The notes beneath the pieces were generated by a model, which was not told where the DNA came from, did not search any database, and saw only the letters and a list, made by a program, of their open reading frames with translations. Shown here piece after piece: positions 2 through 16,710 of a DNA stretch of 64,000 bases. The stretch covers positions 200,887 to 264,886 of the forward strand of contig JANQFL010000011.1 in assembly GCA_028277845.1 (NCBI GenBank), read 5' to 3'. Position 1 is the stretch's first letter. Each line of letters starts with the position of its first letter. The DNA comes from Sneathiellales bacterium. Its GTDB lineage: Bacteria; Pseudomonadota; Alphaproteobacteria; JANQFL01. The position numbers were made by a program, and so were the translations under genes.

Positions 2-415
2 AACGGCGACGATTACCTGGCCGGCGAGGACGGCAACGACATTCTTGAGGGCGGCAGCGGATTCGACACACTGGTTGGCGGTACCGGCGCCGACAAATTC
101 TGGTTCGGCGCCAATGCCAGTTTCGACACCGTAACCGATTTCAACCGGGGTGAGGGCGATAAGATCGTCGTCGAGGAAGGTGTGTTCAATATCGCCAGCG
201 TCGTCGATGGCGACAACTTCACGGTAATCGGCGGCACCTACAATGGGACCAACGGTTCCGGGACGGCTTGGGACGCCAAGCAGGACGCATTCATATTCGA
301 CAGCAACGGCACGCTCTATTACGATGCCAACGGCTCTGACAGCGGGTATACCGTTGTTGCGCAGGTGCAAGGGGTGACGTTGCAAGCCACCGATTTCGAA
401 GTGGATCCCGTCTAG
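2..415 (+). CDS. RTX/hemolysin-type calcium-binding repeat protein, C-terminal fragment (5' end lies outside the window)
   Basis: Translation in the frame of the 182..415 ORF, extended upstream, reads NGDDYLAGEDGNDILEGGSGFDTLVGGTGADKF..., i.e. GGxGxD nonapeptide repeats typical of T1SS substrates. It sits directly upstream of a T1SS ABC/MFP pair. Confidence 0.6.
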   Translation, partial: NGDDYLAGEDGNDILEGGSGFDTLVGGTGADKFWFGANASFDTVTDFNRGEGDKIVVEEGVFNIASVVDGDNFTVIGGTYNGTNGSGTAWDAKQDAFIFDSNGTLYYDANGSDSGYTVVAQVQGVTLQATDFEVDPV

Positions 416-462
416 GAACCTCCGGCACCATCGCCGCGCAGTAACTTTGGAATTGGGCACGA

Positions 463-3521: not shown

Positions 3522-4874
3522 TCAATCGCCCTTCAGGGTGACGAAGCGGCAGTAGGGTTTGATGGCCTTGACGCCGGCCCCCTCGCCGACCAGCGCGACC
3601 ACTTGGTCGACATCCTCGACCACCAGCCCGGACAGCACCTCGATGCCGTAGGCGTGCAGTTGCGGCGCCATCGGCGTGCCCGGCCCGACCAGGGCGAAGC
3701 GGGCCGTACCCCGGGCCCGCAGCAAGCCTTCCAGTGTGCGGTTGACCAGAGTGGACGACGTCACCGCCGCCGCCTCGCAACGGGCCATCAATCGGGGCGC
3801 GGCGACGGAGGCGAACTCGCCCTCCTTGGGAAACTGCTCGACCACCAGAGGCTGGCGCAACCGTTCCGCCAAGCCCGGAAAGCGGCCGATGACGGCCACC
3901 GGGGCATCGATGGCCGCGAAGACGTCGAGGCCGTTCTGATGCGGTGCCTGCAAATCGTAACGATTGAAGTGGGCATTGATGGCGGCAACGCCGATGGCGG
4001 TTTCCGCCGGGTTCCACGACTGCGCCAGCGACGCCAGTTCGTTCAGCGGCCGGCCCGCCAGAGTGCCGACACCGGGTATGGCGCGGCAGCCGGGATGGTC
4101 GTGGGCCGGCGACTTGGCCAGGCCGCAGCCGTCCGGTCCCTCGACCAATGTCCAGTTGCGCCCGACCACGACCCGCTTGGCAGACACGTCGGAAACGGCG
4201 CGCCGCAGTTCTTCGATCAGGGGGTCCGCGCCCCACCAGCGCCAAAGAGCGTCTTCGGTACACGGCAGCAGATCGGACAGGCCGCCGGTAAACGTGTTCC
4301 AGCGTTCGAGCACACCCGCCGGCACGGCAACCAGAACGGGGATGCCCTCCGCCGCCGCGGTGAGGATCTCTTCCGCCAGGCCCTCGCCCTCCTGCTCCCG
4401 CTCGCCGAATTTCTCGACCACGACCAGATCAACTTTGTCGGCGATGGCGCGGCGCAGCGCGGCGGTCGAAGCCGCCAGGGCGGAGCGGTCGAGGGAGCAC
4501 GTCTTGGTCTCCAGATCGTGCGCCGTCGGACGGGCAAGCGGAATGTGCGCGCCGGTATCGACCTCGACGGCATCGAGACCCAGCCGGCTGCCGTCGTCGT
4601 TCAACATGATTTCCTGCACCAGCCCGCCGACCCGCCAGCCGCGGCGCTTCAATTCGGCGGCGAACGGCGCCAGAACATGGCGTTGTTCGGTTTCCGGCGT
4701 ATACAGCACGGCGCCGATCCGGATCTGCGGCGCCACGGCGTCGATATCGGCGTCGAACCGGCTGGCAACCAGTCCGGGCTCGTCCGCCCTCGATTTCCCG
4801 TGCATGTCCGCATCCCTGGTATTCATCGCCAACTCCCGACCGTGACCGCCCAATATATAGTGCATGTTGGGCAA
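3522..4874 (-). CDS. Hypothetical protein. Putative fusion of an NTPase-like DUF2478-type N-domain with a Rossmann-like DUF364/DUF4213-type C-domain
   Basis: 450-aa ORF with coding-like composition, convergent with the T1SS operon. The domain assignment comes only from recalled similarity patterns and is weak. Confidence 0.4.
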   Translation of the reverse strand: MPNMHYILGGHGRELAMNTRDADMHGKSRADEPGLVASRFDADIDAVAPQIRIGAVLYTPETEQRHVLAPFAAELKRRGWRVGGLVQEIMLNDDGSRLGLDAVEVDTGAHIPLARPTAHDLETKTCSLDRSALAASTAALRRAIADKVDLVVVEKFGEREQEGEGLAEEILTAAAEGIPVLVAVPAGVLERWNTFTGGLSDLLPCTEDALWRWWGADPLIEELRRAVSDVSAKRVVVGRNWTLVEGPDGCGLAKSPAHDHPGCRAIPGVGTLAGRPLNELASLAQSWNPAETAIGVAAINAHFNRYDLQAPHQNGLDVFAAIDAPVAVIGRFPGLAERLRQPLVVEQFPKEGEFASVAAPRLMARCEAAAVTSSTLVNRTLEGLLRARGTARFALVGPGTPMAPQLHAYGIEVLSGLVVEDVDQVVALVGEGAGVKAIKPYCRFVTLKGD

Positions 4875-4934
4875 ATTACCGGCCCAGAGAACGATATTCC
4901 CGGCAATTCGGCATTGAGCAGGGTCAAGACGGAT

Positions 4935-5345
4935 CTATCGGCGATTCTCGACCTCAACTTGAATCCTATCGGTAATCGCTTCGAGATCGTCTTTCACCTC
5001 ATGTTCCCAGAACCGCATCACCTTCCAGCCTTCATTACTCAACTGAATGGTGATTTCCTCATCACGCTCTTTGTTCCGCTTCAGTTTTTTTGTCCAGAAC
5101 TTGGCATTACTTTTTGGTTCGACCGCATGTTGAGGGCAGCTATGCCAAAAGCAGCCATCGACAAAAACTGCAACTTTTGCTCCGGCAAATACAATGTCGG
5201 GTCGACCTGGAAGTCGTTGATTGATCCGGTAGCGTATTCCTCTTGCCCACAAAGAACGACGAAGTGCCAGCTCCGGTTTAGTGTCTTTACCCTTAATTCG
5301 GGACATGCAGCGACTGCGCTGCTCCTGCGTCATAACATCAGGCAT
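4935..5345 (-). CDS. vsr: Very short patch repair endonuclease Vsr
   Basis: 136 aa with the motif FVDGCFWHSCPQH and an overall Vsr-like sequence. It lies next to (divergent from) a C5 cytosine methyltransferase. Local GC is lower than the flanking DNA. Confidence 0.85.
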   Translation of the reverse strand: MPDVMTQEQRSRCMSRIKGKDTKPELALRRSLWARGIRYRINQRLPGRPDIVFAGAKVAVFVDGCFWHSCPQHAVEPKSNAKFWTKKLKRNKERDEEITIQLSNEGWKVMRFWEHEVKDDLEAITDRIQVEVENRR

Positions 5346-5400
5346 TTATTGTGTTCCGTCATAGTTTAGCCTGGCTTTTTGTTTACAACCTGGTAGCCTG

Positions 5401-6396
5401 GTGGCCCGATTCGCGATCAGAGTAAATGACATGTGTGCTGTACGAACACTCGACATCTTCTGCGGCGGGGGCGGGAGCAGTTACGGTGCGCAAACTGCTG
5501 GTGCCGAGATCATATGTGGCATTGATATGGATGCAGTTGCCACCGCGACTTTCAAGCACAATTTTCCAAACGCCAAGGTAAAGACCTCGCTTCTTGAAAA
5601 CATCAAGCAGAACAAACTACGTGACCAGTTAGGAGATATTGATCTTCTGCTTGCATCGCCCGAATGCACAAATCACACCTGTGCAAAAGGCTCGGCACCG
5701 CGATCCGAGGAAAGCCGCGCCACGGCTATGCAGACAATCCGTTTCGCCAGGGCTTTCGAACCACGATGGATCATTATGGAGAATGTCATTCATATGCGCC
5801 CGTGGTCACGCTATGGCGAACTGAAGGGAACTCTGGAAGATCTGGGATACAACATCCGGGAGAATATCCTTGATGCAACCGACTTCGGTGTTGGTCAAAA
5901 TCGCCGCCGCTTGTTCATCGTCGCCGACCGTGAGGATCAACCATCTGACATTAGTACACCCGAGAACGTGGAGGTTCCAACGGTTGAGAAAATTCTCGAT
6001 GAATCCGACACGTGGGATATGACGCCGCTTTACAAAGAAGGAAGAGCCAAGGCAACGATCAAACGGGCCGAAAGAGGTTTTGCCGAGCTAGGCAGAGATC
6101 AGCCGTTTCTACTGGTTTACTACGGGAGCGACGGCAGTGGTGGCTGGCAGAGAATCGATCGTCCACTCAGGACAATAACGACGGTAGACAGATTTGCGCT
6201 TGTTGAACCCGGAGAAGGTGGTCATCAGATGCGTATGCTTCAGGTACCTGAGTTACAACGGGCCATGGGCTTTAAAGAGGACTACGAACTGACAGTGGGT
6301 ACTCGTCGCGATAAAATTCGATTACTAGGAAATGGAGTATGCCCTCCTGTTATGAAGGCTGTTGTCGACGAACTTACTGTGCGGCAATGTGCGTAA
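5401..6396 (+). CDS. dcm: DNA (cytosine-5)-methyltransferase
   Basis: Motif I FCGGGG, motif VI IIMENV, motif VIII GQNRRRLFIV, motif X GNGVCPPV. The catalytic region reads ASPECTNHTCAKG (PEC instead of the canonical PCQ). The first start could alternatively be the ATG at 5431. Confidence 0.8.
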   Translation: MARFAIRVNDMCAVRTLDIFCGGGGSSYGAQTAGAEIICGIDMDAVATATFKHNFPNAKVKTSLLENIKQNKLRDQLGDIDLLLASPECTNHTCAKGSAPRSEESRATAMQTIRFARAFEPRWIIMENVIHMRPWSRYGELKGTLEDLGYNIRENILDATDFGVGQNRRRLFIVADREDQPSDISTPENVEVPTVEKILDESDTWDMTPLYKEGRAKATIKRAERGFAELGRDQPFLLVYYGSDGSGGWQRIDRPLRTITTVDRFALVEPGEGGHQMRMLQVPELQRAMGFKEDYELTVGTRRDKIRLLGNGVCPPVMKAVVDELTVRQCA

Positions 6397-7480
6397 TAAG
6401 ATCTTCAGTGCTAAGTTCGGGTTGACCAACTCTCCCCAAATAGGACGCCCATCTCTGGATTAAATTCGGAATAAACTGCGGCGTTATCGAAGCTATTCGA
6501 TGATCAATAAGTTCTTCCACTCTCTCATTCGGTACGGAGATCACATTCTTAAAGTTCACGATCCAAGGGCCTTCTTCCGCACATGGAGGCAGAAAGTGCA
6601 AGCTACTCTCAACATTTTGATTCGCCCAACCTTTTACTTTGTCTGTTATCTTTCTGCTTGGTTTTCCATCGTTCTTGACTATGGCATCCTTCAATTCTTG
6701 CCAGTTTTCTGATAAGTCTGTGCACGGCGCCAACAAAATATTATCAGGATAATCTCTTGCAATATTGCACTGTGGGGTGACGACGACGCAGACGTTACCA
6801 TCTAGTCGAGTTATGTCGCCTGTGTGAAGCCGGTCTCGAATTGGTGGTACAAAGTAAAATTCGTGAAGATGGAACTTATCTACTTCAACGCCGGGTAGAG
6901 ACAGGGTTTCAGCCAGAAACGCAACCACTTGCCGACTGACTACATGAAATAGGGCTTCTTCCTTGAGCGCATGTGTTTGACCATCTTGCCATTGAGGCCA
7001 GACCGATTTATAGAAAATACGTGCTGTCTCAATATTGAGTCGACTTCTCGTTTCTCTCATAGCATTCATTAGAGGAGCTTGCTCGGCCAGCCATTTAAAC
7101 GCCTCCTGGTGCGAGTCAGTGTCTTTCACCAATATCTTAAATGGTAAGTTATCGAACTCTTCACTGAGTTCTCTGGTGTGACCGCTATGGATCAACACAG
7201 GAACAGCGTGATTTGAAACAACTTCTCGGATCGCTGCGTTTCCATGTCGCTCGTCCCCAGTTTCGTCGCCAGTATTGGGGACACGTAAATCAAGCATCGC
7301 ACAATCGACATATTGCGAGGAAAACGTTTCTATGGCTTCTGAAGTTGACTTGACAGCTGTAATACTCAGCTTGATCGGACTGTCCGCTGACTGGTTGTAT
7401 TCCTGAACGTTCCTCTGAAGTCGTTCAATTTCGGTCTGTTCGTCTTCGAGTACAAGGAGATGAAATGTCGGACTAGGCAT
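6374..7480 (-). CDS. Response-regulator receiver domain protein with a C-terminal effector domain of unknown function (about 220 aa)
   Basis: The N-terminus reads HLLVLEDEQ...DCAMLDLRVPNTGDETG...VPVLIHSGHT...PFKILVKD, consistent with a CheY-like fold. The phospho-acceptor Asp sits in the MLDLRVP context and the conserved T/S and K are present. The C-terminal half has no motif I can recognise. The gene is 3 nt downstream of the kinase gene and lies in the low-GC islet. Confidence 0.6.
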   Translation of the reverse strand: MPSPTFHLLVLEDEQTEIERLQRNVQEYNQSADSPIKLSITAVKSTSEAIETFSSQYVDCAMLDLRVPNTGDETGDERHGNAAIREVVSNHAVPVLIHSGHTRELSEEFDNLPFKILVKDTDSHQEAFKWLAEQAPLMNAMRETRSRLNIETARIFYKSVWPQWQDGQTHALKEEALFHVVSRQVVAFLAETLSLPGVEVDKFHLHEFYFVPPIRDRLHTGDITRLDGNVCVVVTPQCNIARDYPDNILLAPCTDLSENWQELKDAIVKNDGKPSRKITDKVKGWANQNVESSLHFLPPCAEEGPWIVNFKNVISVPNERVEELIDHRIASITPQFIPNLIQRWASYLGRVGQPELSTEDLITHIAAQ

Positions 7481-7483
7481 ACT

Positions 7484-9688
7484 TTAGAATCCACTGACAG
7501 GAATCCGTATTAGAAATGCCGCACCAATCTCTCGATCAAGGTATTCAATTGTTCCCCTCGACCGTCCAATGGCCTCCCTTGCAATAGACAAACCCAACCC
7601 TGTCCCCTTTGGTTTCAATGAGAACCCAACATCAAATATCTGATCACGAAACTCTTCCGGTATGCCCTTACCGTTGTCTGAGATTTCAATTACGCAACTA
7701 TCTTGGTCTCTACTCAAATTAAATTCAACTAATGGATTTCTAATTTCGTGATGGTCGAGCCAGAAAATCGCGTTATCAAGGATATTTGTAATTGCCGTAG
7801 CCAAATCTTCTCTATATCCAAAAACACTATCGATCGCGTCATCGTTTTTATGTGAAGTATCTATCCCGGCTTCATCCAATTTGCTGCGGAATAACTGAAT
7901 AGCGTCGATAACTATCTGATTGGGATTATATTGGGTCGGTTTGCCACGTCGTCCTCCCGCTAACGGCTCCGTGGCCTTAAAGAGTAACCGCAGTTTGTCT
8001 GCGTTAATATTCATTCCCCTCAAGATACCAGGTGTTACATCCCGTTGTCTCAATGCCTCCTCAGAATCGCTGCATAATGTTGGCCAATAGCGTAACAAAC
8101 GACGAGATTCATCCTGTAAGAATGCCACAGGTGCGCGACCCTCATGGAGCACTTCTCCAAGTATCAGACCTAACGTGACTTTCATTTCCAGGATCGATTG
8201 CTTTTCTTCGAGGTCCTTTAAGTAGCCAATAAGTCGCTTTGATTCCCTGGCGATTTTTTCTCTGGCTTCAATCTGCAAATCGATTGGTAGGTCAGCGACC
8301 ATAGGTTCCGCCCATCGCATGTAGGCGCTTTCGTAAATTCTTGTAAAATCGGTCTGATTTCGTCGACCAATTCCAGCGTTATCTCGAAACGAATATCGTT
8401 TGGGCTCAACGACTTCAGAAAAGAGAGTAGAGATCAATCGCTTCAAACGGAGATAGCTGCCATTCTCCTCCAATCCTTCGCGATTGCTTTGCTCAATGAG
8501 TCCAGACCGTTGCTCACTATCGACTACCAGAACACCTGAAACCTGATTGTGCCCAATCTTGAACCCTGGCTTTTGAACACGAAGTGTATCCAATGTAAGC
8601 CAATCATTATCTGGATCACCGTAAGGACGGATTCGGAACCTGTCACGATAGATGGCAACACCAGAAATTGAATCCAAAATCTCTCTAGCCTGTTTTGCTT
8701 TCAGGTCTCCCATTCCTGCACGCTGCATAGCTGTTTTAACCGCTTCAGCTTCTCTATCGAAAATGAAAAGATGGACTAGGACTATCCCGCACGGTTTCTC
8801 GCCAAATTCTTCGATTTTAATGGGTACTGAACAATGAATTTTTTTGGGTTCCAGCCGGCCACGATGAATAGTCATCGTTCCGTCGAAGTTACCCTCCTCA
8901 TCAAACGCTCCGGCTACTTCATAGTCGCAAGACGAAAGCATCGGAAATGGTTCGACACGATGATGGTTTGACTCTTCCCTATCTGGAAACGCGCTGTTTA
9001 CGATGGCGCCGCCAGAAAAACCGCATCGTTCTTCCGTGCATTCAGAGAGATCGAGGTAGATTTTAAAGTCTGAGTCTTCGGCTATATCCAATGGTGAAAG
9101 CATTCGGCGAAGTTCTTGAAAAAGGCTACGCAACTTACTTTCAGTCCACGTATCTCGAAGTTCCCTTATCCTTAGTGTTGTTCCTGTATTAAGAGCTGGT
9201 ACCGGATGTTCATACTCGAACTCGATATCAGATAGATATTCTGTTTCGTCAAACACATCCCAATTTATGTTGGAAACGACAGTAGTCTGGCTCGTGCTCC
9301 CATCTTTGAGATAAGCTGTGGATTCCAAATCAAGCCACTTACCGAGTTTTGATGCTGCAAACCGCCCGATACCTTTGGAGCCCAATAGCTTTCTTTTTCC
9401 ACTACGGGAAGTTTCAGAATCTACTTTGTCGGTAGTGGCAGGCTCCATCCACTTTCGATCTATATCATTCAGTGTCATTCCATGACCATCGTCCTCGACA
9501 ATGATCGAACCGGAACCTGCGGTAAGAGGAGGAATAAATCGTATTCTCACCCAGTTGGCGTCTGCATCGTGACTATTTTTGACCAACTCAATAACAGCCG
9601 TTTCCGGGCCACTGATCAAACGATCACCAATTGTTCGAATGATGCGGGCTCTTGGTTTGAAGGAAAGTGTGTTCTTTGCTTCGGCCAT
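7484..9688 (-). CDS. Hybrid GHKL protein: N-terminal MORC/MutL-type HATPase_c_3 domain, central unknown region, C-terminal HisKA (H-box HEGRAPV) plus HATPase_c histidine kinase
   Basis: The N-terminus has ELVKNSHDADA (N-box), DDGHGM (G1) and GSKGIGRFAA (G2). The C-terminus has LHEGRAPVAFL (H-box), ITNILDNAIFW (N-box), DNGKGIPEEF (G1) and GTGLGLSIARE (G2). No transmembrane segments are evident. Confidence 0.6.
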   Translation of the reverse strand: MAEAKNTLSFKPRARIIRTIGDRLISGPETAVIELVKNSHDADANWVRIRFIPPLTAGSGSIIVEDDGHGMTLNDIDRKWMEPATTDKVDSETSRSGKRKLLGSKGIGRFAASKLGKWLDLESTAYLKDGSTSQTTVVSNINWDVFDETEYLSDIEFEYEHPVPALNTGTTLRIRELRDTWTESKLRSLFQELRRMLSPLDIAEDSDFKIYLDLSECTEERCGFSGGAIVNSAFPDREESNHHRVEPFPMLSSCDYEVAGAFDEEGNFDGTMTIHRGRLEPKKIHCSVPIKIEEFGEKPCGIVLVHLFIFDREAEAVKTAMQRAGMGDLKAKQAREILDSISGVAIYRDRFRIRPYGDPDNDWLTLDTLRVQKPGFKIGHNQVSGVLVVDSEQRSGLIEQSNREGLEENGSYLRLKRLISTLFSEVVEPKRYSFRDNAGIGRRNQTDFTRIYESAYMRWAEPMVADLPIDLQIEAREKIARESKRLIGYLKDLEEKQSILEMKVTLGLILGEVLHEGRAPVAFLQDESRRLLRYWPTLCSDSEEALRQRDVTPGILRGMNINADKLRLLFKATEPLAGGRRGKPTQYNPNQIVIDAIQLFRSKLDEAGIDTSHKNDDAIDSVFGYREDLATAITNILDNAIFWLDHHEIRNPLVEFNLSRDQDSCVIEISDNGKGIPEEFRDQIFDVGFSLKPKGTGLGLSIAREAIGRSRGTIEYLDREIGAAFLIRIPVSGF

Positions 9689-9921
9689 CTACCTATTACT
9701 TATGTTGGTGTTCGATAAATCGACATTCATACTTATCGCCCTCAAGTTTTTGACTGTCACAATTTATCGAATTGTGAAACAAGTAGCCTCAGCGTCTTGC
9801 AGACTTCGCTACAAAAGCCGCTGATTTTATTGTAACCCCTTAGGGCGCTTGATGTAGGTTACACCTGTATCCGCTATTAAAACATCTGTCGGTTGCAAAA
9901 CCTACGCCCATTAGATAGGCC

Positions 9922-10092
9922 ATGGCCACGGCGGCGCAGCTTGAATACGGCTGCACCTGGATCAACACCCATTTCATGCTGGTCAACGAATTGCCCCACC
10001 GCAGATTGAAACAGTCGGGTTACGGCAAGGACATGTCTCTCTACGCCCTCGAGAACTTCACGGCCGCGCGCCAAGTGATGATCGCGCACTAG
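9922..10092 (+). pseudogene. Aldehyde dehydrogenase C-terminal remnant (56 codons, 5' region deleted or replaced)
   Basis: The + frame encodes MATAAQLEYGCTWINTHFMLVNELPHRRLKQSGYGKDMSLYALENFTAARQVMIAH*, the conserved ALDH C-terminus. An in-frame TAG lies immediately upstream. It sits at the GC-content boundary of the islet. Confidence 0.65.
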
Positions 10093-10162
10093 AAAACACC
10101 CATTGTTTTGGCGCCGGAACCTTGTCTTTCGCCGGTCAGTGCCGGATGTGCCGGCAATCCGC

Positions 10163-11272
10163 TCATCCGGCGTCCCATAGGGAAAGGATTTGGCCTTCCG
10201 AGGGGCGGATATTGCCGTTCAGGGTCTTGATATAGCGGTCCAGCGTTTCCGCCGGGCCATGGCCCTGCACGACGGTAATCCAGTCGCCGGTCTTGCCGAC
10301 GAACGCGCTCCACCGTTCGTTGAGGCGGGTCTGGAAACCTTCCGCACCCCAAGCCTCCAGCCGCCGTTCGGCGTGCGTGGGGGCGAAGAAAAACCGTGAC
10401 CGGGGACCGGGCAGCCCCTCGTACTCCGTTGCCGCCGACTGCCAGTGGGTCAGGCCGACACGGCAACTGCTCTTCAATTCACCGCCAAAATGATGATGGA
10501 TGCGCGAGAGCACATCGGCGTCGCCCGCCATGTCGACGAAGGCCGCCGATGAGACGGGCAAGGTCTCCAGAGCATCATAGTTGACCACTTGGTCGTAGCA
10601 GCCCAGCGAGTCGACGAATTCGCGGTTACCCGGACTGGTCAGTCCAACGACGGAAAGCGACTCGGGTTTCTTGTTCTGCAGCAAATCAGCCAATGCCATG
10701 GACGTCTTGCTCGACGCACTGGACAGGATGACCGTTCCGGCGCCGAAATAGTCCTCGCTCCGATGGTAGTCCTCCAGCAGGAACGACGTCGCGAACAAAG
10801 GGCGGAACAGGCTGGTCAGGCTTTCGTGTTCGGGCCGGTACACCGGATCGGTCTTGGTGAACGCGTACTGATTGTAGAACGGCGCCCGTTCCTGGCGATG
10901 CGCGGCGCCGTCCGTCACCATGAACGGCGTCACCTTGGAGGGCTCGATCATCAGGTGTGTCGACATCGGCAGATAGCCGTACAGGCGATCGCCCTGTTCC
11001 AGTCCGGCGGCGTTGGAGGCGACGACGTCGGCATACCCCCACACCGGGATGCGGCCGTATCCAACGTGTCCGGTCGGGAAGAAATCCCAGTATCCGAGCT
11101 GGTCGGCCGAGACGCCGTAGGAGATGTTGTTTGCGGTCAGGGCGAAGGTGTCGACTTTCAGAAGACACCGGCCGTCATCAAGGCCATCGGCATCGGGGAA
11201 TTCCGTTTCGACGATCCTGGCGTCCGACAAATCGGACCGGTTGACGACCAAATCAATACCTGTGATGGGCAT
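10163..11272 (-). CDS. DUF2855-family hypothetical protein
   Basis: 369-aa ORF with coding-like high GC3. The family assignment is from recalled similarity and is tentative. Confidence 0.5.
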   Translation of the reverse strand: MPITGIDLVVNRSDLSDARIVETEFPDADGLDDGRCLLKVDTFALTANNISYGVSADQLGYWDFFPTGHVGYGRIPVWGYADVVASNAAGLEQGDRLYGYLPMSTHLMIEPSKVTPFMVTDGAAHRQERAPFYNQYAFTKTDPVYRPEHESLTSLFRPLFATSFLLEDYHRSEDYFGAGTVILSSASSKTSMALADLLQNKKPESLSVVGLTSPGNREFVDSLGCYDQVVNYDALETLPVSSAAFVDMAGDADVLSRIHHHFGGELKSSCRVGLTHWQSAATEYEGLPGPRSRFFFAPTHAERRLEAWGAEGFQTRLNERWSAFVGKTGDWITVVQGHGPAETLDRYIKTLNGNIRPSEGQILSLWDAG

Positions 11273-11465
11273 GTCGTTGCGCTCCCCGACGCGAACAACG
11301 GAATATGGATTCCTTTATCGGCCGGTGCGCACCCGTCGCATGATCCTACCCAGGCACATTTCCGGCCGCGGCGATCATAGCGTCGGCGCATTGCAGCGAA
11401 CAGCCGAATGTTCGATCGGAATTGCGCAGCGGCCGGGATGAAATTCCACGTCGCAATAACAGGCG

Positions 11466-12230
11466 TTAAGCCGCTTCCGCTTGCGCCTCGTCGTCCAGGG
11501 CAATACCCACGTCCAGCGCTTCCAACCAGTCGAGGAACCGGACGACATCGTCGCCCTGGAACAGACGGCCGTGTTGCGGCGCCATGATGTCGATCTCGAG
11601 GGCGCGGACCCGTTTGATCCAGGCGTTTTTGGCCTTGTTCGACGGCATCCAGCGCTGGTGGAAGTAGCGCATGTGCGCGGTGTGGGCTTCGAAATCCTCG
11701 ACGAACATGGGCACGTCGCCTTTCTCCAGCGCCGCACCGATGTCGCCGCTCATGAGGATTTTCGATTCAGGATCGTAGACGTGGAAATTGGCCGACGAAT
11801 GCAGATAGTGCGCCGGCACGAATTGCAGCGTCAGGCCATCCAGCTTCATGGTCGAGCCTTCGTCGGGGATCGGCACGAATTCCACATTGTCACAGCCGAA
11901 ATGGCGCACGAACCCTTCCCACAGCCAAGGGCAATGCAGTTTGGCCTGCGGCAAGGTACGATCCCATAACCCGAGCGACGAAATGATGTCCGGGTCCTGA
12001 TGGGACGCGAATATGTGGGTGATGTTTTCCAGCGGCGTGTGATGGATGACGGCGCTGAGCATGGCCGGAAAGATCTCGATCCCGCCCGGGTCCAGCAGCA
12101 TGGCCTGATTGCGCGTCGCGATGAGATATTGGTTGGTGTCGATGATCTTCTCCGGCTTTTCCGGGTCACGCCCGAAAACCAACCAGCGTGCGCCGCTCAC
12201 CTTGTTTTCGCTGAGAACCGTCGATTTCAT
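11466..12230 (-). CDS. MBL-fold metallo-hydrolase
   Basis: Contains the HxHxDH-like motif FASHQDPD followed by downstream His/Asp ligands. 254 aa. Confidence 0.75.
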   Translation of the reverse strand: MKSTVLSENKVSGARWLVFGRDPEKPEKIIDTNQYLIATRNQAMLLDPGGIEIFPAMLSAVIHHTPLENITHIFASHQDPDIISSLGLWDRTLPQAKLHCPWLWEGFVRHFGCDNVEFVPIPDEGSTMKLDGLTLQFVPAHYLHSSANFHVYDPESKILMSGDIGAALEKGDVPMFVEDFEAHTAHMRYFHQRWMPSNKAKNAWIKRVRALEIDIMAPQHGRLFQGDDVVRFLDWLEALDVGIALDDEAQAEAA

Positions 12231-12260
12231 TGTGTCCTCACTTCCTTCGTGCAGAAAAAT

Positions 12261-12893
12261 TCAGTTGCTGGCCGTCTGGTGCGCCCGCAACAGCGTGCGG
12301 CAGGAGGCCACCATGGACCGCACCTGCTCGGCGGAGTTGTTGAGGTCCACCGCCATGGCGTCGAATTGACCGCCGCTGGTCCCGAGCGATGCCGCTTCCG
12401 TCCGCGCCACCGTGGCGAAGCTTATGGCGGCGAGGATGCGTTGATCGATTTCATCCAGCAGCGATGTCAACGTGTACAGATATTCGCGTAGCCGGTCGCG
12501 CAGCGACTGAACCTCCCGTTCCAGCCCGGCCAGGGGTTGACGAACGGAGGCGGCGTATTCGGCCTTGCCGGCACGCTTTTGGCCTTCGGCCACCTTGTCC
12601 CTGGACTGCGCCGCCCTGACCTCGGACAGGGACGTTCGGGAAACTTCGAGGGCGACCCGGTTGACGTCGCCGGTGAGGCGGCGGACATCGTTGGCCAGTT
12701 CCTGCATGAAATCGGTGATGGGGCGGAATCCGCGCGCGCTCTGTTCCGCCCGGGCGGTAAGAGCCATGGTGTTCATGGCACCGAGCGAGATGTTTTCCGC
12801 CACCGGGATAACCTTGTCCAGCGTCGCCGCGATGGTCACGGCGGCAACGTAGAAGTCGTCGCCGGTCTTTTGTTTCGATACCGTGATCTCCAT
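12261..12893 (-). CDS. Small cytoplasmic protein with a degenerate MCP signalling-tip-like segment
   Basis: ATG at 12893 (MEITVSKQK...). The segment ISLGAMNTMALTARAEQSARGFRPITDFMQELAN aligns to the MCP hairpin-tip consensus [32 protein letters not shown], with substitutions at key positions. It is the last gene of the che/partner-switching operon. Confidence 0.45.
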   Translation of the reverse strand: MEITVSKQKTGDDFYVAAVTIAATLDKVIPVAENISLGAMNTMALTARAEQSARGFRPITDFMQELANDVRRLTGDVNRVALEVSRTSLSEVRAAQSRDKVAEGQKRAGKAEYAASVRQPLAGLEREVQSLRDRLREYLYTLTSLLDEIDQRILAAISFATVARTEAASLGTSGGQFDAMAVDLNNSAEQVRSMVASCRTLLRAHQTASN

Positions 12894-12904
12894 GGCGCAG
12901 TCTC

Positions 12905-13816
12905 CTACCGGGCCCCGTCGAAGTGCATGCGTGCCTCGACGATATTGCCGGCGCCCTCGAAGCGGACGTCGTCGAATGCCAGCTTGCGGGCGAACAGCAG
13001 GCCGCGGCCATGCAGGCCGCAATCCGAACATCCCTCGTGTTCTTCAAAACGGCGGTAGTCGAACCCCTTGCCCTGATCGGTCACCCGGATGGTGACACCG
13101 GACGGGCCATTGTCGAAGTCGACCAGAACGAACCGGTCCTTGAAGGGGGCCTGCTCCAGACGGCGCTCGATTTCCGTCTGCCAGGTGCCGTCGGCCAGCA
13201 GGACGGATTTCCGCTCGTAACCGATTTCGAGATTACCGTGCTCGATGGCGTTGACGAACAGCTCCCGTGCGCCCAGGGCGACCCGTTCCGGTTCCGGGCA
13301 CGACAGCGACAGCATCGTCGCCAGGTTCTCGGCTTCTTCCAATGTCCGTATCCTGAACTGACCGGACCGGACATGGCCGACGGCGGATGTGCGCTTGCGC
13401 ACTTCGGCCCGCAACTGCGACCGCTTCTCCTGTTCGAACACCGCCGCCCGGACGACCGCACACAGCGTCTTGTCATTGACCGGCTTGCGCAACTCATAGG
13501 CCGCCTCGCGGGCGATATGTTCGGCCACCGGGTGCGAGCCGTCTCCGGTTAACAACATCAATGGCACCTTCGATTTATCGGGTGGAAGCAGCAATTCGAG
13601 CAACGCCCCGTCGCTTTTGGAAAATCCGGTATCACCATCGAAAATGATGGCCTCAATCCCCGAAGACGAAGCACTGATCGCGGCCAGGCCATCGTCGGAA
13701 ATCTCCTGCAGGTCCTGCAATTCAAACTGCTCATCAGAAACTCTGGCCAATTTTCCAATACGTTGCGAACTTCGATCTATGATCAACACGGGAATGGGAT
13801 CTTCGGTCATATCCAT
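12905..13816 (-). CDS. Receiver-domain protein fused to an RsbW/SpoIIAB-like GHKL serine kinase (anti-sigma-factor-like)
   Basis: N-terminal receiver-like region (PVLIIDRS...IIFDGDTG...LMLLTGDG). C-terminal HATPase motifs ELFVNAIEHGN and DQGKGFD...GLHGRGLLFARK. Confidence 0.6.
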   Translation of the reverse strand: MDMTEDPIPVLIIDRSSQRIGKLARVSDEQFELQDLQEISDDGLAAISASSSGIEAIIFDGDTGFSKSDGALLELLLPPDKSKVPLMLLTGDGSHPVAEHIAREAAYELRKPVNDKTLCAVVRAAVFEQEKRSQLRAEVRKRTSAVGHVRSGQFRIRTLEEAENLATMLSLSCPEPERVALGARELFVNAIEHGNLEIGYERKSVLLADGTWQTEIERRLEQAPFKDRFVLVDFDNGPSGVTIRVTDQGKGFDYRRFEEHEGCSDCGLHGRGLLFARKLAFDDVRFEGAGNIVEARMHFDGAR

Positions 13817-13839
13817 CGCCGGAACTCAATTCGATTGTT

Positions 13840-15084
13840 TCAATAACGATGGAAACAGAGAACGGAGAGGTCATCGGGCAATGGTCCCGGCGCCCGCACG
13901 AAAAACCGGTTCAACAGGGATTCCATCATATCCTTGACGTTGGCGTGCCCGACGCTTTCCCCGGCCAGACGCAGCAGGTCGTCCTGTGTGAATACGGGGT
14001 CGGCCGGAGTCGGCGTTTCCACCAACGCATCACTGTAGAAAAAGAGCACATCGCCTTCACCGAAGGGCGTGGAATGAACCGTGTATTCGTTTTCCTTTCT
14101 GAATCCGACGGGCAGGCCGGCACTTTCGAGATAGCGAACGTCTCCGGAACGGTCGTTTGCCAAAATGGGTGGCGGGTGGGCCGCAGACGAATAGGTCAGG
14201 CGGTCGTTCTCGAGATCGAGAACGCCGATGATCATGGTCGCGAACTGCCCGGTCGGTAAAACCCGCGTGAAAAACGTATTCACCATTCCCAGATAATTGC
14301 CGGCGTCCACAATGGATTCGGACGCCATCCAATCCAGCAGGGTGTGCAGGCGAAACGTGTTCAACGCGGCGGTAACGCCATGACCGGAAAAGTCCGCCGA
14401 TACGAATCCAAGGCGGTTTTCGGTAATCGAGCGCAGGCCCCAGAAATCCCCGCCAAGCTCCTGGCAGGCTTCGTAGTGCGCCGCGATGCCCAGATTGTGA
14501 CGCGCCGAGAGCTTGTCGATGACGTCCTGACTGGGCATGAGGGCGCGTTGCATACCGTGCGCCATATCCAGTTCATAGCGCAACCGTTCCTGATAGATCG
14601 ACAGTTCCCGAATGAGAAACCGGTTTTCCAGATGGATTTTCACCCGTGCGATCAATTCGGGCGCATAGATCGGCTTCGTCACCAAATCCGTCGCGCCGAC
14701 ATCGAACGCCTTGGACCGTTCCTCCTCCGAATTGATTCCCGACTGAAACAGCACCGGTGTATCGCGCAGGAAAGGATCGGACCGGATTTTGCGGCAAACC
14801 TCGTAGCCATCCATGTCGGGCATGACGATATCGAGAAGAATCAGATCGGGCTTGATTTGCCGGGTCTTCTCGAGAGCTTCGTTGCCATCGGCGGCCTCTT
14901 CGACACAAGTGTAGCCGGCCTTCCGCAAATAGGCGGAAATCAAGGTCCGCTGCAATTTTCTGTCATCGACCACGAGGATGGACGCATCCAAGTTGTGTTG
15001 CTCGGATACCGTGGCCTCATGGGTGGCCTCGACCTCCAACGCCGGTGAGGCCGACACATTCTCCGCACGCAATGAAGCAGTCAT
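13840..15084 (-). CDS. Response regulator receiver plus PP2C-type (SpoIIE/RsbU-like) phosphatase
   Basis: ILVVDDRKLQRTL...DLILLDIVMPDMDGYEV...TKP forms the receiver. The C-terminus, with GGDFWGL and SDGL-like motifs, is PP2C. The track ORF extends to 15201, but the likely start is near MTASLRAEN. Confidence 0.75.
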   Translation of the reverse strand: MTASLRAENVSASPALEVEATHEATVSEQHNLDASILVVDDRKLQRTLISAYLRKAGYTCVEEAADGNEALEKTRQIKPDLILLDIVMPDMDGYEVCRKIRSDPFLRDTPVLFQSGINSEEERSKAFDVGATDLVTKPIYAPELIARVKIHLENRFLIRELSIYQERLRYELDMAHGMQRALMPSQDVIDKLSARHNLGIAAHYEACQELGGDFWGLRSITENRLGFVSADFSGHGVTAALNTFRLHTLLDWMASESIVDAGNYLGMVNTFFTRVLPTGQFATMIIGVLDLENDRLTYSSAAHPPPILANDRSGDVRYLESAGLPVGFRKENEYTVHSTPFGEGDVLFFYSDALVETPTPADPVFTQDDLLRLAGESVGHANVKDMMESLLNRFFVRAPGPLPDDLSVLCFHRY

Positions 15085-15110
15085 GGATATACCCAAACTC
15101 CGGCCGGCTT

Positions 15111-15419
15111 CTACATTTCCACGACGACCACATCGCCGATTTTGGCCAAATCCAGCAATTGCTTGACCTGACCGCGCGGTGATCGCAGTGCGAAATCCCA
15201 ACTGTTCTTCTGCAGTTCCTCATTGGCAATCATGAACATCCCCAGTCCCGCGGAATCGACGGAAGCCAACTGGGACAACTCGAACACGCATTTCTTTCCG
15301 CCATTTGAGATAACGTTCTTCAACACATCGCGGAATTCTCCATGGTCGGAGAACGTCAGTGCCTCGCTGAGCCGCACCACGACTTCGTTATCGGCCACAT
15401 TGACTTCGTGCTTCATCAT
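15111..15419 (-). CDS. STAS-domain anti-sigma-factor antagonist
   Basis: 102 aa with a SpoIIAA-like pattern, including the conserved phosphorylatable Ser region (...ELSQLASVDSAGLG...). Confidence 0.75.
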   Translation of the reverse strand: MMKHEVNVADNEVVVRLSEALTFSDHGEFRDVLKNVISNGGKKCVFELSQLASVDSAGLGMFMIANEELQKNSWDFALRSPRGQVKQLLDLAKIGDVVVVEM

Positions 15420-15430
15420 TCCCTCCTTTG

Positions 15431-16660
15431 CTAAAACAGTTCGACATCCCCGCCCGAGGCAGCGGCACCGGTGTCTTCTTCGTCCGGTATCGCGTCCTCT
15501 TCGTCAAACAACATGCGCCTGACGAAACGCTCCCGCATCTCGCCCAACGTGCAGCGGTTGACGACCGACAACAGCCATTCCTCGTCGACCACCGCGTCCT
15601 GATTGACATCCGAAACGGTCTCCCGCGTCTCGGCCTTCAAGTCATCGGTGGCATCACTGAGGACGGAGATGGTTCCGATGACGTTTTCCAATCTCTGTTT
15701 CGTACGGTCCTGGAATTGCGTGCCCGTGACCAGGCCGGAAACGTCTTTGGTGATGGCCTCGGCGACCTGCGCGGAATCCGACAGCGTGCTGGTGAACAGG
15801 TTGTTCTGCTCAACCAGTCCCTTCATCATTTTTTCGAGACGTTCCTTTGCAACGATCTGATCGGACATGTCGATGGCCGCGACCTTCTTTAATTCGGCGT
15901 GTCCGGACCGAACACCCTGCGTGACGGCCAGGACCTGTTCACGCATGTCGGTCGACAATCTATCGATTGTGCGGGACAGTTCCCGGACCTCTTCCGACAC
16001 CACACCGAAACCCTTGCCGGCGTCGCCGGCGCGCGCCGCCTCGATCTTGGCATTCATGGCCAGCAAGTTGGTCTGGTAGTTGATCGTTTCGATCTGGTCG
16101 ATGCAGGCCTCGACTTCTATGACGTGATTGATCACATCGTCGAGGGCATACACCATGGAGACGGCCTGCTTGGACATGAACAGGATCTTGTTGACCACGT
16201 CCATCAGCGTGCTCTCGAGAATCTGCGGAAACTCCGTCAGCCGGATGGACTCTCCATCCACTTCCACCTGCTGGGCCAGTTGGATGATCTCGAAGATACT
16301 CTCGGTCTGGCGCTGCGCATTGCCGGCCAGATTGGTAAATCGGCCGGAAAGGTCCTCCGTGCTTTCCTCGACCAGGTCGGAGGCAATTGTGATTTCGCCG
16401 CACAGGGCAGACAGGGTACGGCGTTGAATTTCCGACAGGCCGATCCAGCGGTCCAGGAACTCGACGACATCCGTGTGACTGTAATCCGGAGCGGTGTCGG
16501 CGTCCGCGGACAACCGCAGATCGTGTTCATCCACGGCCGTGCCGGATGTTTCGTGTTGGGCTTCGACGCAATCGATGGTCTCGGATTCATTGCCGGCCGT
16601 TTCGAACGGGTTTTCGGTTTCGTCCACCGCAAGGGCCGCCTTTTTCTTAAACCACAACAT
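15431..16660 (-). CDS. Soluble methyl-accepting chemotaxis protein (cytoplasmic MCP signalling domain)
   Basis: Has the highly conserved tip [39 protein letters not shown]. No TM segments. 409 aa. Confidence 0.8.
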
Positions 16661-16710
16661 CGATCCACTCGCCTCTCGCTAACCCAAACGTTCTCGACAT
16701 TCGCTCTGCA

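Follow-up and report, generated by a model that had tools for sequence, protein, structure and literature searches.

The window analysed here is a 64,000-nucleotide stretch of contig JANQFL010000011.1 from a Sneathiellales bacterium, and an islet of low guanine-plus-cytosine (GC) content at ~4,880-9,920 within it carries four genes: vsr, dcm, the gene of a 734-residue histidine kinase and the gene of a 368-residue receiver protein. We propose that these genes probably move as one cassette, which combines a C5-cytosine methylase, accompanied here by Vsr, with a two-protein phosphorelay that has a toxin as its output. A phosphorelay-triggered toxin acting in defence or in maintenance of the element is the most likely function of the kinase-receiver pair, and the arrangement suggests a defence resembling restriction-modification (R-M) that arrests the cell instead of cutting DNA.

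Results

The receiver protein ends in a domain with a predicted toxin fold

At E <= 0.01, neither Pfam nor NCBIfam has a family that matches the 368-residue protein. The first-pass annotation had stated that its C-terminal domain matched nothing recognisable; this holds for sequence profiles but not for the predicted fold, which matches MazF-type toxins. Comparison of the full-length model with the PDB had given receiver-domain matches only, and residues 134-368 were modelled separately (predicted local distance difference test score, pLDDT, 88.6 for this domain and 93.7 for the full protein). In the predicted model, the MazF/Kid/CcdB-fold core (~205-350) comes after two long helices (135-193), and the top 50 Foldseek matches of the domain are MazF/CptN proteins only, with a probability of ~1 and a TM-score to the target of 0.6-0.72. 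At the level of fold, the domain is thus predicted to be an SH3-like barrel of the MazF/Kid(PemK)/CcdB/ToxN superfamily, from whose members it would differ by ~140 extra residues contributed by the two N-terminal helices and an insertion. Neither a helix-turn-helix (HTH) nor any other DNA-binding family was detected in the receiver protein by Pfam scans, and together with the predicted fold this agrees with the earlier view of the domain as an effector rather than a DNA-binding output. No small antitoxin-type gene lies next to it in the islet; unlike in the MazF superfamily, control would be supplied by the fused receiver.

Conservation covers both halves of the protein. The receiver residues D13, D64, S99 and K119 are conserved across homologues. 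In the C-terminal domain, R183, E207, Y209, T220-G221-(D222), P236-x-C238 and R350 are invariant in a comparison that spans Alphaproteobacteria, Campylobacter, Bacillus and a spirochaete, and R328 and R343 are nearly so. The family comprises at least 425 clusters at 50% identity (E <= 1e-30), nearly all of 350-400 residues, and no relatives were found in phage genomes. Two longer members (P0294 and P0299, 470 and 466 residues) have ~100 additional residues, with abundant Lys, Glu and Gln, inserted between core strands three and four, at the position of the two extra helices of the window protein. Short proteins that appear to consist of the C-terminal domain only may be truncated gene calls, and we draw no conclusion from them.

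Several observations speak against the toxin assignment. It derives entirely from predicted structures, and Pfam gives no MazF/PemK relationship even at E <= 10. A PDB profile search was empty, and hhalign returned a probability of 0.4 against a hand-entered four-sequence MazF/Kid alignment. Moreover, when the alignment is read by eye, the canonical catalytic Arg and Thr of MazF do not appear to be conserved: the loop between beta1 and beta2 is short, and there is variation at the sites that correspond to R29 and T52. The domain may therefore have a chemistry other than that of MazF, for which CcdB and ToxN are precedents.

The partner is a soluble histidine kinase with a MutL-like ATPase

Kinase and receiver genes form a tightly coupled operon, as first annotated, with only 3 nucleotides (7481-7483) between the kinase stop and the receiver start. 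The kinase had been described as a GHKL ATPase followed by a HisKA and HATPase kinase. All the motifs named in that description are invariant in our alignment of 38 homologues, over which invariance was judged, whereas the Pfam HisKA model gives no match despite the conserved H-box. The invariant positions include E34, N38, D66-x-G68-x-G70 and G103-x-K105-G106-x-G108 in the N-terminal ATPase, a block from R348 to G405 in the middle region, the H-box histidine H515 (H515-E516 in the window) and, in the C-terminal kinase ATPase, N635/N639, N672-G673, F685/F689 and G695-x-G697-x-G699. In PDB sequence searches, the first 500 residues come closest to MutL N-terminal domains, though weakly (E = 0.014), and the last 234 residues match histidine-kinase catalytic domains with E down to 3e-12. 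Its sequence contains no evident signal or membrane segments.

The family is large, with >2,000 matches in the search, and many members carry N-terminal extensions of ~200 or 380-400 residues. One homologue (P0031, 888 residues, on a 2.9-kb contig) is a hybrid kinase with a canonical Response_reg domain fused at its C-terminus, which hints at multi-step relays in some members.

It had also been claimed that the islet contains no recognisable restriction endonuclease (REase), a statement that needs to be qualified. The GHKL module of the kinase resembles the N-terminal third of restriction enzymes of the BbrUII/HgiDII family (NF050001, restrict_BbrUII, E = 5e-19), and the only PADLOC matches of the kinase are to REase_II (residues 18-218, E = 1e-12). 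In addition, DefenseFinder labels AbrB, the related kinase of the Ambrosia system discussed below, as a Type II REase (Table S1, bioRxiv 10.1101/2025.09.30.679545), and paraMORCs work with nucleases in R-M operons (PMC2292703). On these grounds the 734-residue protein could be a GHKL-type ATPase subunit of a restriction enzyme and the 368-residue protein a novel DNA nuclease that cuts unmethylated DNA. We consider this quite improbable. The match scores 68.2 bits, where the cutoff is 550, and is limited to the GHKL domain, with positions 13-204 of the 659 in the profile aligned. Beyond this domain the protein is a genuine histidine kinase whose H-box is invariant, and the partner has an intact receiver and an output domain that resembles RNA-cleaving or gyrase-poisoning toxins and no known DNase fold. 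BbrUII/HgiDII enzymes and paraMORCs share with the window kinase a MutL-like GHKL ATPase adjoining C5 methylase and Vsr genes in mobile operons of R-M type (PMC2292703). In paraMORCs, a GHKL domain with intact ATP motifs precedes an S5-fold domain; the window kinase has the intact motifs and the R-M context. It differs from these proteins in that a histidine-kinase core, not a nuclease, follows the GHKL and middle regions, and in that it would signal to a separate receiver.

vsr and dcm are clear family members

Both Vsr and a C5 methyltransferase are present, as originally proposed. Besides its Pfam match, Vsr scores 144.5 bits with TIGR00632 (cutoff 97.85) and is also matched by PADLOC, and Dcm is recognised by TIGR00675 (119 bits) and by the PADLOC DrmMII model (E = 2e-91). 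The dcm gene could start at GTG 5401 (331 residues) or at ATG 5431 (321 residues); the latter is more likely and matches the database call in L008, a database locus that covers the islet. It runs convergently to the receiver gene, with an overlap of 23 nucleotides.

The kinase and receiver-toxin co-diverge while the methylase is exchanged

The receiver-toxin gene lies directly after the kinase gene in every locus examined, and pairwise identities of kinases and receiver-toxins are strongly correlated (rho = 0.92, 15 loci). From this strict adjacency, the correlation and the conservation of H515, the ATP sites and D13/D64/S99/K119, we conclude that kinase and receiver-toxin are a cognate pair, as the first-pass annotation had held, and that they co-diverge tightly. 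The methylase is freely swapped. An instance of such swapping is given by two loci whose kinases are equally related to that of the window: the Dcm of L093 is 75% identical to the window Dcm, and that of L092 is unrelated.

A C5 methylase is encoded within three genes of the pair in 16 of the 21 informative contexts, across at least six phyla, and Vsr in 10 of the 21. In three contexts (L013, L014 and L018) an EcoRII-C endonuclease gene is added. The cassette recurs in at least seven phyla, among them Pseudomonadota, Acidobacteriota, Spirochaetota, Campylobacterota, Bacillota and Cyanobacteriota, mostly on mobile elements: conjugative plasmids, an integrative and conjugative element and islets flanked by integrase genes or insertion sequences. 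It is carried by 41 conjugative Campylobacter plasmids, which have the same convergent receiver/dcm layout as the window with a 4-nucleotide overlap, and by Bacillus and Acaryochloris plasmids. Homologues are found in contexts of mobile elements and defence genes, not in housekeeping regulons, in keeping with the candidate defence role originally put forward. A further 65 loci retrieved by the receiver domain only (L023-L087) were discarded as unrelated response regulators, none of which has the GHKL half of the kinase nearby.

How tightly the methylase belongs to the cassette is a separate matter, and here three results count against a functional link: methylase and kinase identities are uncorrelated (rho = 0.12), no kinase segment that tracks the methylase type was found when looked for, and three contexts (L001, L005 and L020) have no methylase within 10 kb. 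They favour the alternative that methylase and Vsr are independent neighbours in a defence island with no functional tie to the pair. The GC content of the islet points the same way, since it differs slightly between vsr-dcm (~50-52%, 4750-6500) and the kinase-receiver operon (44-46%, 6250-9750), which fits an independent exchange of methylases relative to the pair. Yet we regard this alternative as very improbable. The methylase gene of the 16 contexts often touches or overlaps the receiver gene, as in the window and in Campylobacter, the three-gene unit moves alone into housekeeping loci (L093), kinases with an EcoRII-N-like domain are paired with Dcm-type methylases (see below), and the enrichment of such neighbours reported in 2021 was significant against shuffled genomes (PMC8011034).

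The same distribution bears on a second alternative, in which the cassette would be mainly an addiction module that keeps mobile elements in the cell: once the element is lost, the methylase would be diluted and the relay would fire the toxin, and protection from phage would be no more than a by-product. The plasmids of Campylobacter, Bacillus and Acaryochloris, the integrative and conjugative element, the small islets and the predicted toxin-fold output are all compatible with it, and R-M systems are known as selfish elements (discussed in PMC8011034). Nevertheless, we consider addiction as the main role unlikely. It invokes the same parts and biochemical steps as the reading that we prefer, the sole difference being the selective role; Ambrosia, a related system, protects against phage, and the methylase is missing from some copies.

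Individual loci illustrate how the cassette is placed. In L093, the kinase, receiver-toxin and Dcm genes lie between an intact prs and a 159-residue duplicate of its 3' part (6647-7579 and 12389-12868). This layout suggests an integration mechanism that regenerates the end of the target gene, though no integrase is present, and it closely parallels the aldehyde dehydrogenase remnant of the window described below. In Pseudomonas viridiflava (L005/L006, ~4800-16500), a P2-like module for tail and lysis functions (GpU, tail X, GPD, glycoside hydrolase 19) lies on one side of the pair, and SRAP, an integrase and umuDC-like genes lie on the other; ParE/PaaA2 and HepT-like genes are close by, and there is no methylase. 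On the Acaryochloris plasmid pREB1 (L090), the cassette of methylase, kinase and receiver is followed ~5 kb downstream by a gene for a NACHT-domain protein (12022-13128), so that this may be a neighbourhood of defence genes.

Long kinases may carry a DNA reader

Three kinases of ~1,100 residues (L007, L013 and L014) adjoin methylases of the E. coli Dcm type, and the methylases of L013 and L014 exceed the curated NCBIfam cutoff of NF007772 (PRK10458). The N-termini of these long kinases resemble EcoRII-N, with E = 1e-52 in L007; the matches in L013 and L014 (E ~4e-4) fall below the gathering cutoff. CCWGG is the target of both E. coli Dcm and EcoRII. With this site in common, an identifiable DNA reader in the kinase fits the neighbouring methylase. 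It is therefore possible, though we put it forward tentatively, that the input of the relay is DNA, or its methylation state, at the target sites of the methylase, read in the long forms through the EcoRII-N-like domain. Since methylases are freely exchanged and some copies lack one, methylation sensing is doubtful for the short kinase of the window.

The islet is an insertion

The composition and the boundaries of the islet support two earlier claims, namely that a low-GC segment lies within a high-GC chromosome (0.44-0.52 against 0.62-0.70 in the flanks) and that it was inserted there. The islet is an imported cassette whose right junction is marked by a truncated aldehyde dehydrogenase gene, of which the last ~55 residues of a 477-498-residue enzyme are left. 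The remnant aligns to residues 444-497 of a 498-residue enzyme (E = 6e-23) in the PDB sequence search and is called in the database as a 56-residue Aldedh fragment with a weak Aldedh match. Where solved homologues have EMPHGGIKQSGYGKD, it reads ELPHRRLKQSGYGKD, and this change from Gly-Gly to Arg-Arg in a conserved motif suggests that the fragment is decaying. Repeat and tRNA scans of the islet edges revealed no att-like direct repeats, no integrase and no tRNA. The promoter of the kinase operon is presumably located in the AT-rich region upstream of it; a consensus sigma-70 promoter was not found there, and the promoter scan matched this region less often than shuffled sequence.

To the right of the islet, at ~11400-16700 of the window (3-4570 of L008, in the opposite orientation), there is an apparent partner-switching regulatory module composed of a STAS protein, a receiver-SpoIIE phosphatase and an anti-sigma-type kinase (HATPase_c_2), beyond which lie a metallo-beta-lactamase-fold gene and a DUF2855 gene. 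These genes are of housekeeping type and have the normal GC content of the chromosome. The coordinates of the islet and its features are listed in Table 1.

Table 1. Coordinates of the low-GC islet, its genes and domains, and the right junction (positions in the window).
Feature	Position	Strand	Basis
Low-GC islet	4880..9921		Composition profile, repeat scan, tRNA scan
vsr, very-short-patch repair endonuclease, 136 residues	4935..5345	-	Pfam Vsr, E = 4e-29
dcm, C5-cytosine DNA methyltransferase	5401 or 5431..6396	+	PF00145, E = 2e-39
C-terminal effector domain, residues 134-368	6374..7081	-	Predicted MazF/Kid/CcdB toxin fold
Receiver (REC) domain, residues 1-133	7082..7480	-	Phospho-acceptor D64, acidic pair E12-D13, S99, K119
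734-residue soluble kinase	7484..9688	-	Pfam, NCBIfam, invariant residues, PDB sequence matches, AbrB comparison
Histidine-kinase catalytic ATPase, residues 626-731	7496-7813	-	Pfam HATPase_c
H-box H515 of kinase	8144-8146	-	Invariant in 38 homologues
Conserved middle region of kinase, residues ~330-435		-	Alignment
MutL/paraMORC-type GHKL ATPase of kinase, residues 20-218	9035-9631	-	Pfam HATPase_c_3 at residues 28-138
AT-rich region upstream of kinase operon	9689..9921		Sequence; promoter scan
Aldehyde dehydrogenase remnant, right junction of insertion	9922..10092	+	PDB sequence search; database gene call

Discussion

The model that we favour is that of a phosphorelay ending in a toxin. The soluble kinase would use its MutL/paraMORC-type GHKL ATPase and the conserved middle region as a sensor and, once activated, would autophosphorylate H515 by means of its C-terminal kinase ATPase. 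The phosphate would then be passed to D64 of the 368-residue partner. Phosphorylation of D64 would switch on the MazF/CcdB-fold domain, probably through dimerisation of the receiver, which could assemble the dimer that toxins of the MazF type need. The active domain would arrest or kill the cell, most likely by RNA cleavage, with one of two consequences: i) an infection by incoming DNA would be aborted or ii) cells that lose the element would be killed. A more specific version, which we regard as conceivable but doubtful, is that the cassette is an R-M system whose nuclease has been replaced by signalling. In that version the kinase would read methylation, and unmethylated DNA would set off the phosphorelay, the MazF-fold toxin and growth arrest; the long forms would use their EcoRII-N-like reader, and in the short forms the methylase would act as the specificity subunit.

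The pairing of these genes and their coupling to Dcm and Vsr, which the first-pass annotation took to be undescribed, had already been reported. Bellieny-Rabelo, Pretorius and Moleleki described in 2021 soluble HATPase_c_3/HEF_HK/HATPase_c proteins linked to a receiver-like protein, Response_reg_2, in 91.6% of 644 regions, and enriched, significantly so against shuffled genomes, next to C5 methylase, Vsr, HNH and EcoRII-C genes (PMC8011034). Their study was purely computational; its reference protein came from Pectobacterium, in which the neighbours are usually HNH genes, the proteins were related to paraMORCs, and the output domain of the receiver was not assigned, a regulatory role being speculated upon (PMC8011034). 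The window pair shares with this family a soluble kinase that combines HATPase_c_3 and HATPase_c with an H-box in which Glu or Asp follows the His, an adjacent receiver with the acidic pair, Asp, Ser/Thr and Lys that Pfam Response_reg barely detects, and strong linkage to genes for C5 methylase and Vsr, EcoRII-C being another neighbour. Neither PF19191 (HEF_HK) nor PF19192 (Response_reg_2) matched the window proteins or AbrC at E <= 10 in a copy of Pfam in which the presence of these models is unconfirmed. The window proteins may belong to a sister branch of the HEF_HK/Response_reg_2 family.

The closest system with experimental support is Ambrosia of Pseudomonas aeruginosa, which consists of the XRE regulator AbrR, the N6-adenine methylase AbrA, the kinase AbrB, the 209-residue receiver AbrC and the HNH nuclease AbrD, and which has been validated against phage, with all genes and the receiver aspartate being required (bioRxiv 10.1101/2025.09.30.679545). 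The window kinase has the same architecture as AbrB and is 31% identical to it over residues 10-408 (BLASTP, E = 9e-43, with the first 399 residues of AbrB compared), and in both systems methylase, kinase and receiver are encoded in one cluster. By contrast, the receiver protein of the window has no significant similarity to AbrC, and it is a 368-residue protein with a 235-residue domain of predicted toxin fold fused to the receiver. The window islet also has a C5 methylase and Vsr and no HNH or XRE gene; tblastn found no match of AbrA or AbrD in L008 or in related loci, a search in which AbrR was not included. An effector fused to the receiver would replace the separate HNH gene of Ambrosia, which fits a modular exchange of effectors.

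The authors of the Ambrosia study favour transcriptional control by the two-component pair, a view that weighs against a toxin output (bioRxiv 10.1101/2025.09.30.679545). Extended to the window, it would mean that the kinase senses infection or stress and that the receiver, once phosphorylated, controls expression of the methylase and repair genes beside it. In Ambrosia, infection induces the reporter fusions, and a winged helix is reported for AbrC (bioRxiv 10.1101/2025.09.30.679545), several linked methylases contain HTH domains, and a regulatory role was also suggested in 2021 (PMC8011034). The window receiver, however, resembles AbrC in no detectable way and has no detectable DNA-binding domain, and the model of its output domain matches toxins only. 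Furthermore, in three contexts the pair has no R-M gene within 10 kb that it could control, and the methylase is exchanged independently of the pair. We therefore find a purely regulatory two-component system rather unlikely and retain the toxin-output model.

In the case of Detocs (DtcA, DtcB and DtcC; Rousset et al.), the resemblance that was first noted is one of logic. A sensor kinase acts there on a receiver with a cell-arresting C-terminal effector domain, effectors are modular, and the effector of DtcC is a PNP (ATP nucleosidase) in 80% of systems (bioRxiv 10.1101/2023.01.24.525353). The path from kinase to receiver to toxic effector would be similar in the window, but the cassette is not a member of Detocs: its kinase is of another family, the N-terminus of this kinase is a GHKL ATPase with no TPR by Pfam, unlike the TPR sensor of DtcA, its operon has no third gene and no stand-alone buffer receiver of the DtcB type, and its receiver protein, though analogous to DtcC in architecture, is not a PNP and has no detectable homology to it beyond the receiver fold. 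Detocs, for its part, has no methylase linkage. The third Detocs component is a stand-alone receiver, not the Hpt phosphotransfer protein assumed by the first-pass annotation.

How may such cassettes be overlooked? PADLOC, which had been proposed as a check, returned no named defence-system family; for the kinase-receiver pair it gave only REase_II on the GHKL module and weak PDC-M60B/C matches (E ~4e-4) confined to the receiver domain. As the REase_II and BbrUII profiles match the GHKL module only, these loci can be filed as ordinary Type II R-M systems, an annotation hazard for a family that is found on plasmids and islands in many phyla, with its thousands of kinase matches and hundreds of receiver clusters. 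With the gene pair and its Dcm/Vsr linkage already published (PMC8011034), what is new here is the predicted toxin-fold effector, the co-divergence of kinase and effector as opposed to the swapping of methylases, and the kinase forms with EcoRII-N-like sensors. With the predicted output, what was a vague regulatory pair in the vicinity of R-M genes becomes a model open to testing, that of a methylase-coupled toxin gated by phosphorylation. If this is true, the cassette would join Detocs, to which it is unrelated, as a second family whose two-component relay itself serves as the immune effector, and would provide an example of a MazF-fold toxin that is controlled by a fused receiver and needs no antitoxin; it may also reveal a cytoplasmic histidine kinase that senses DNA.

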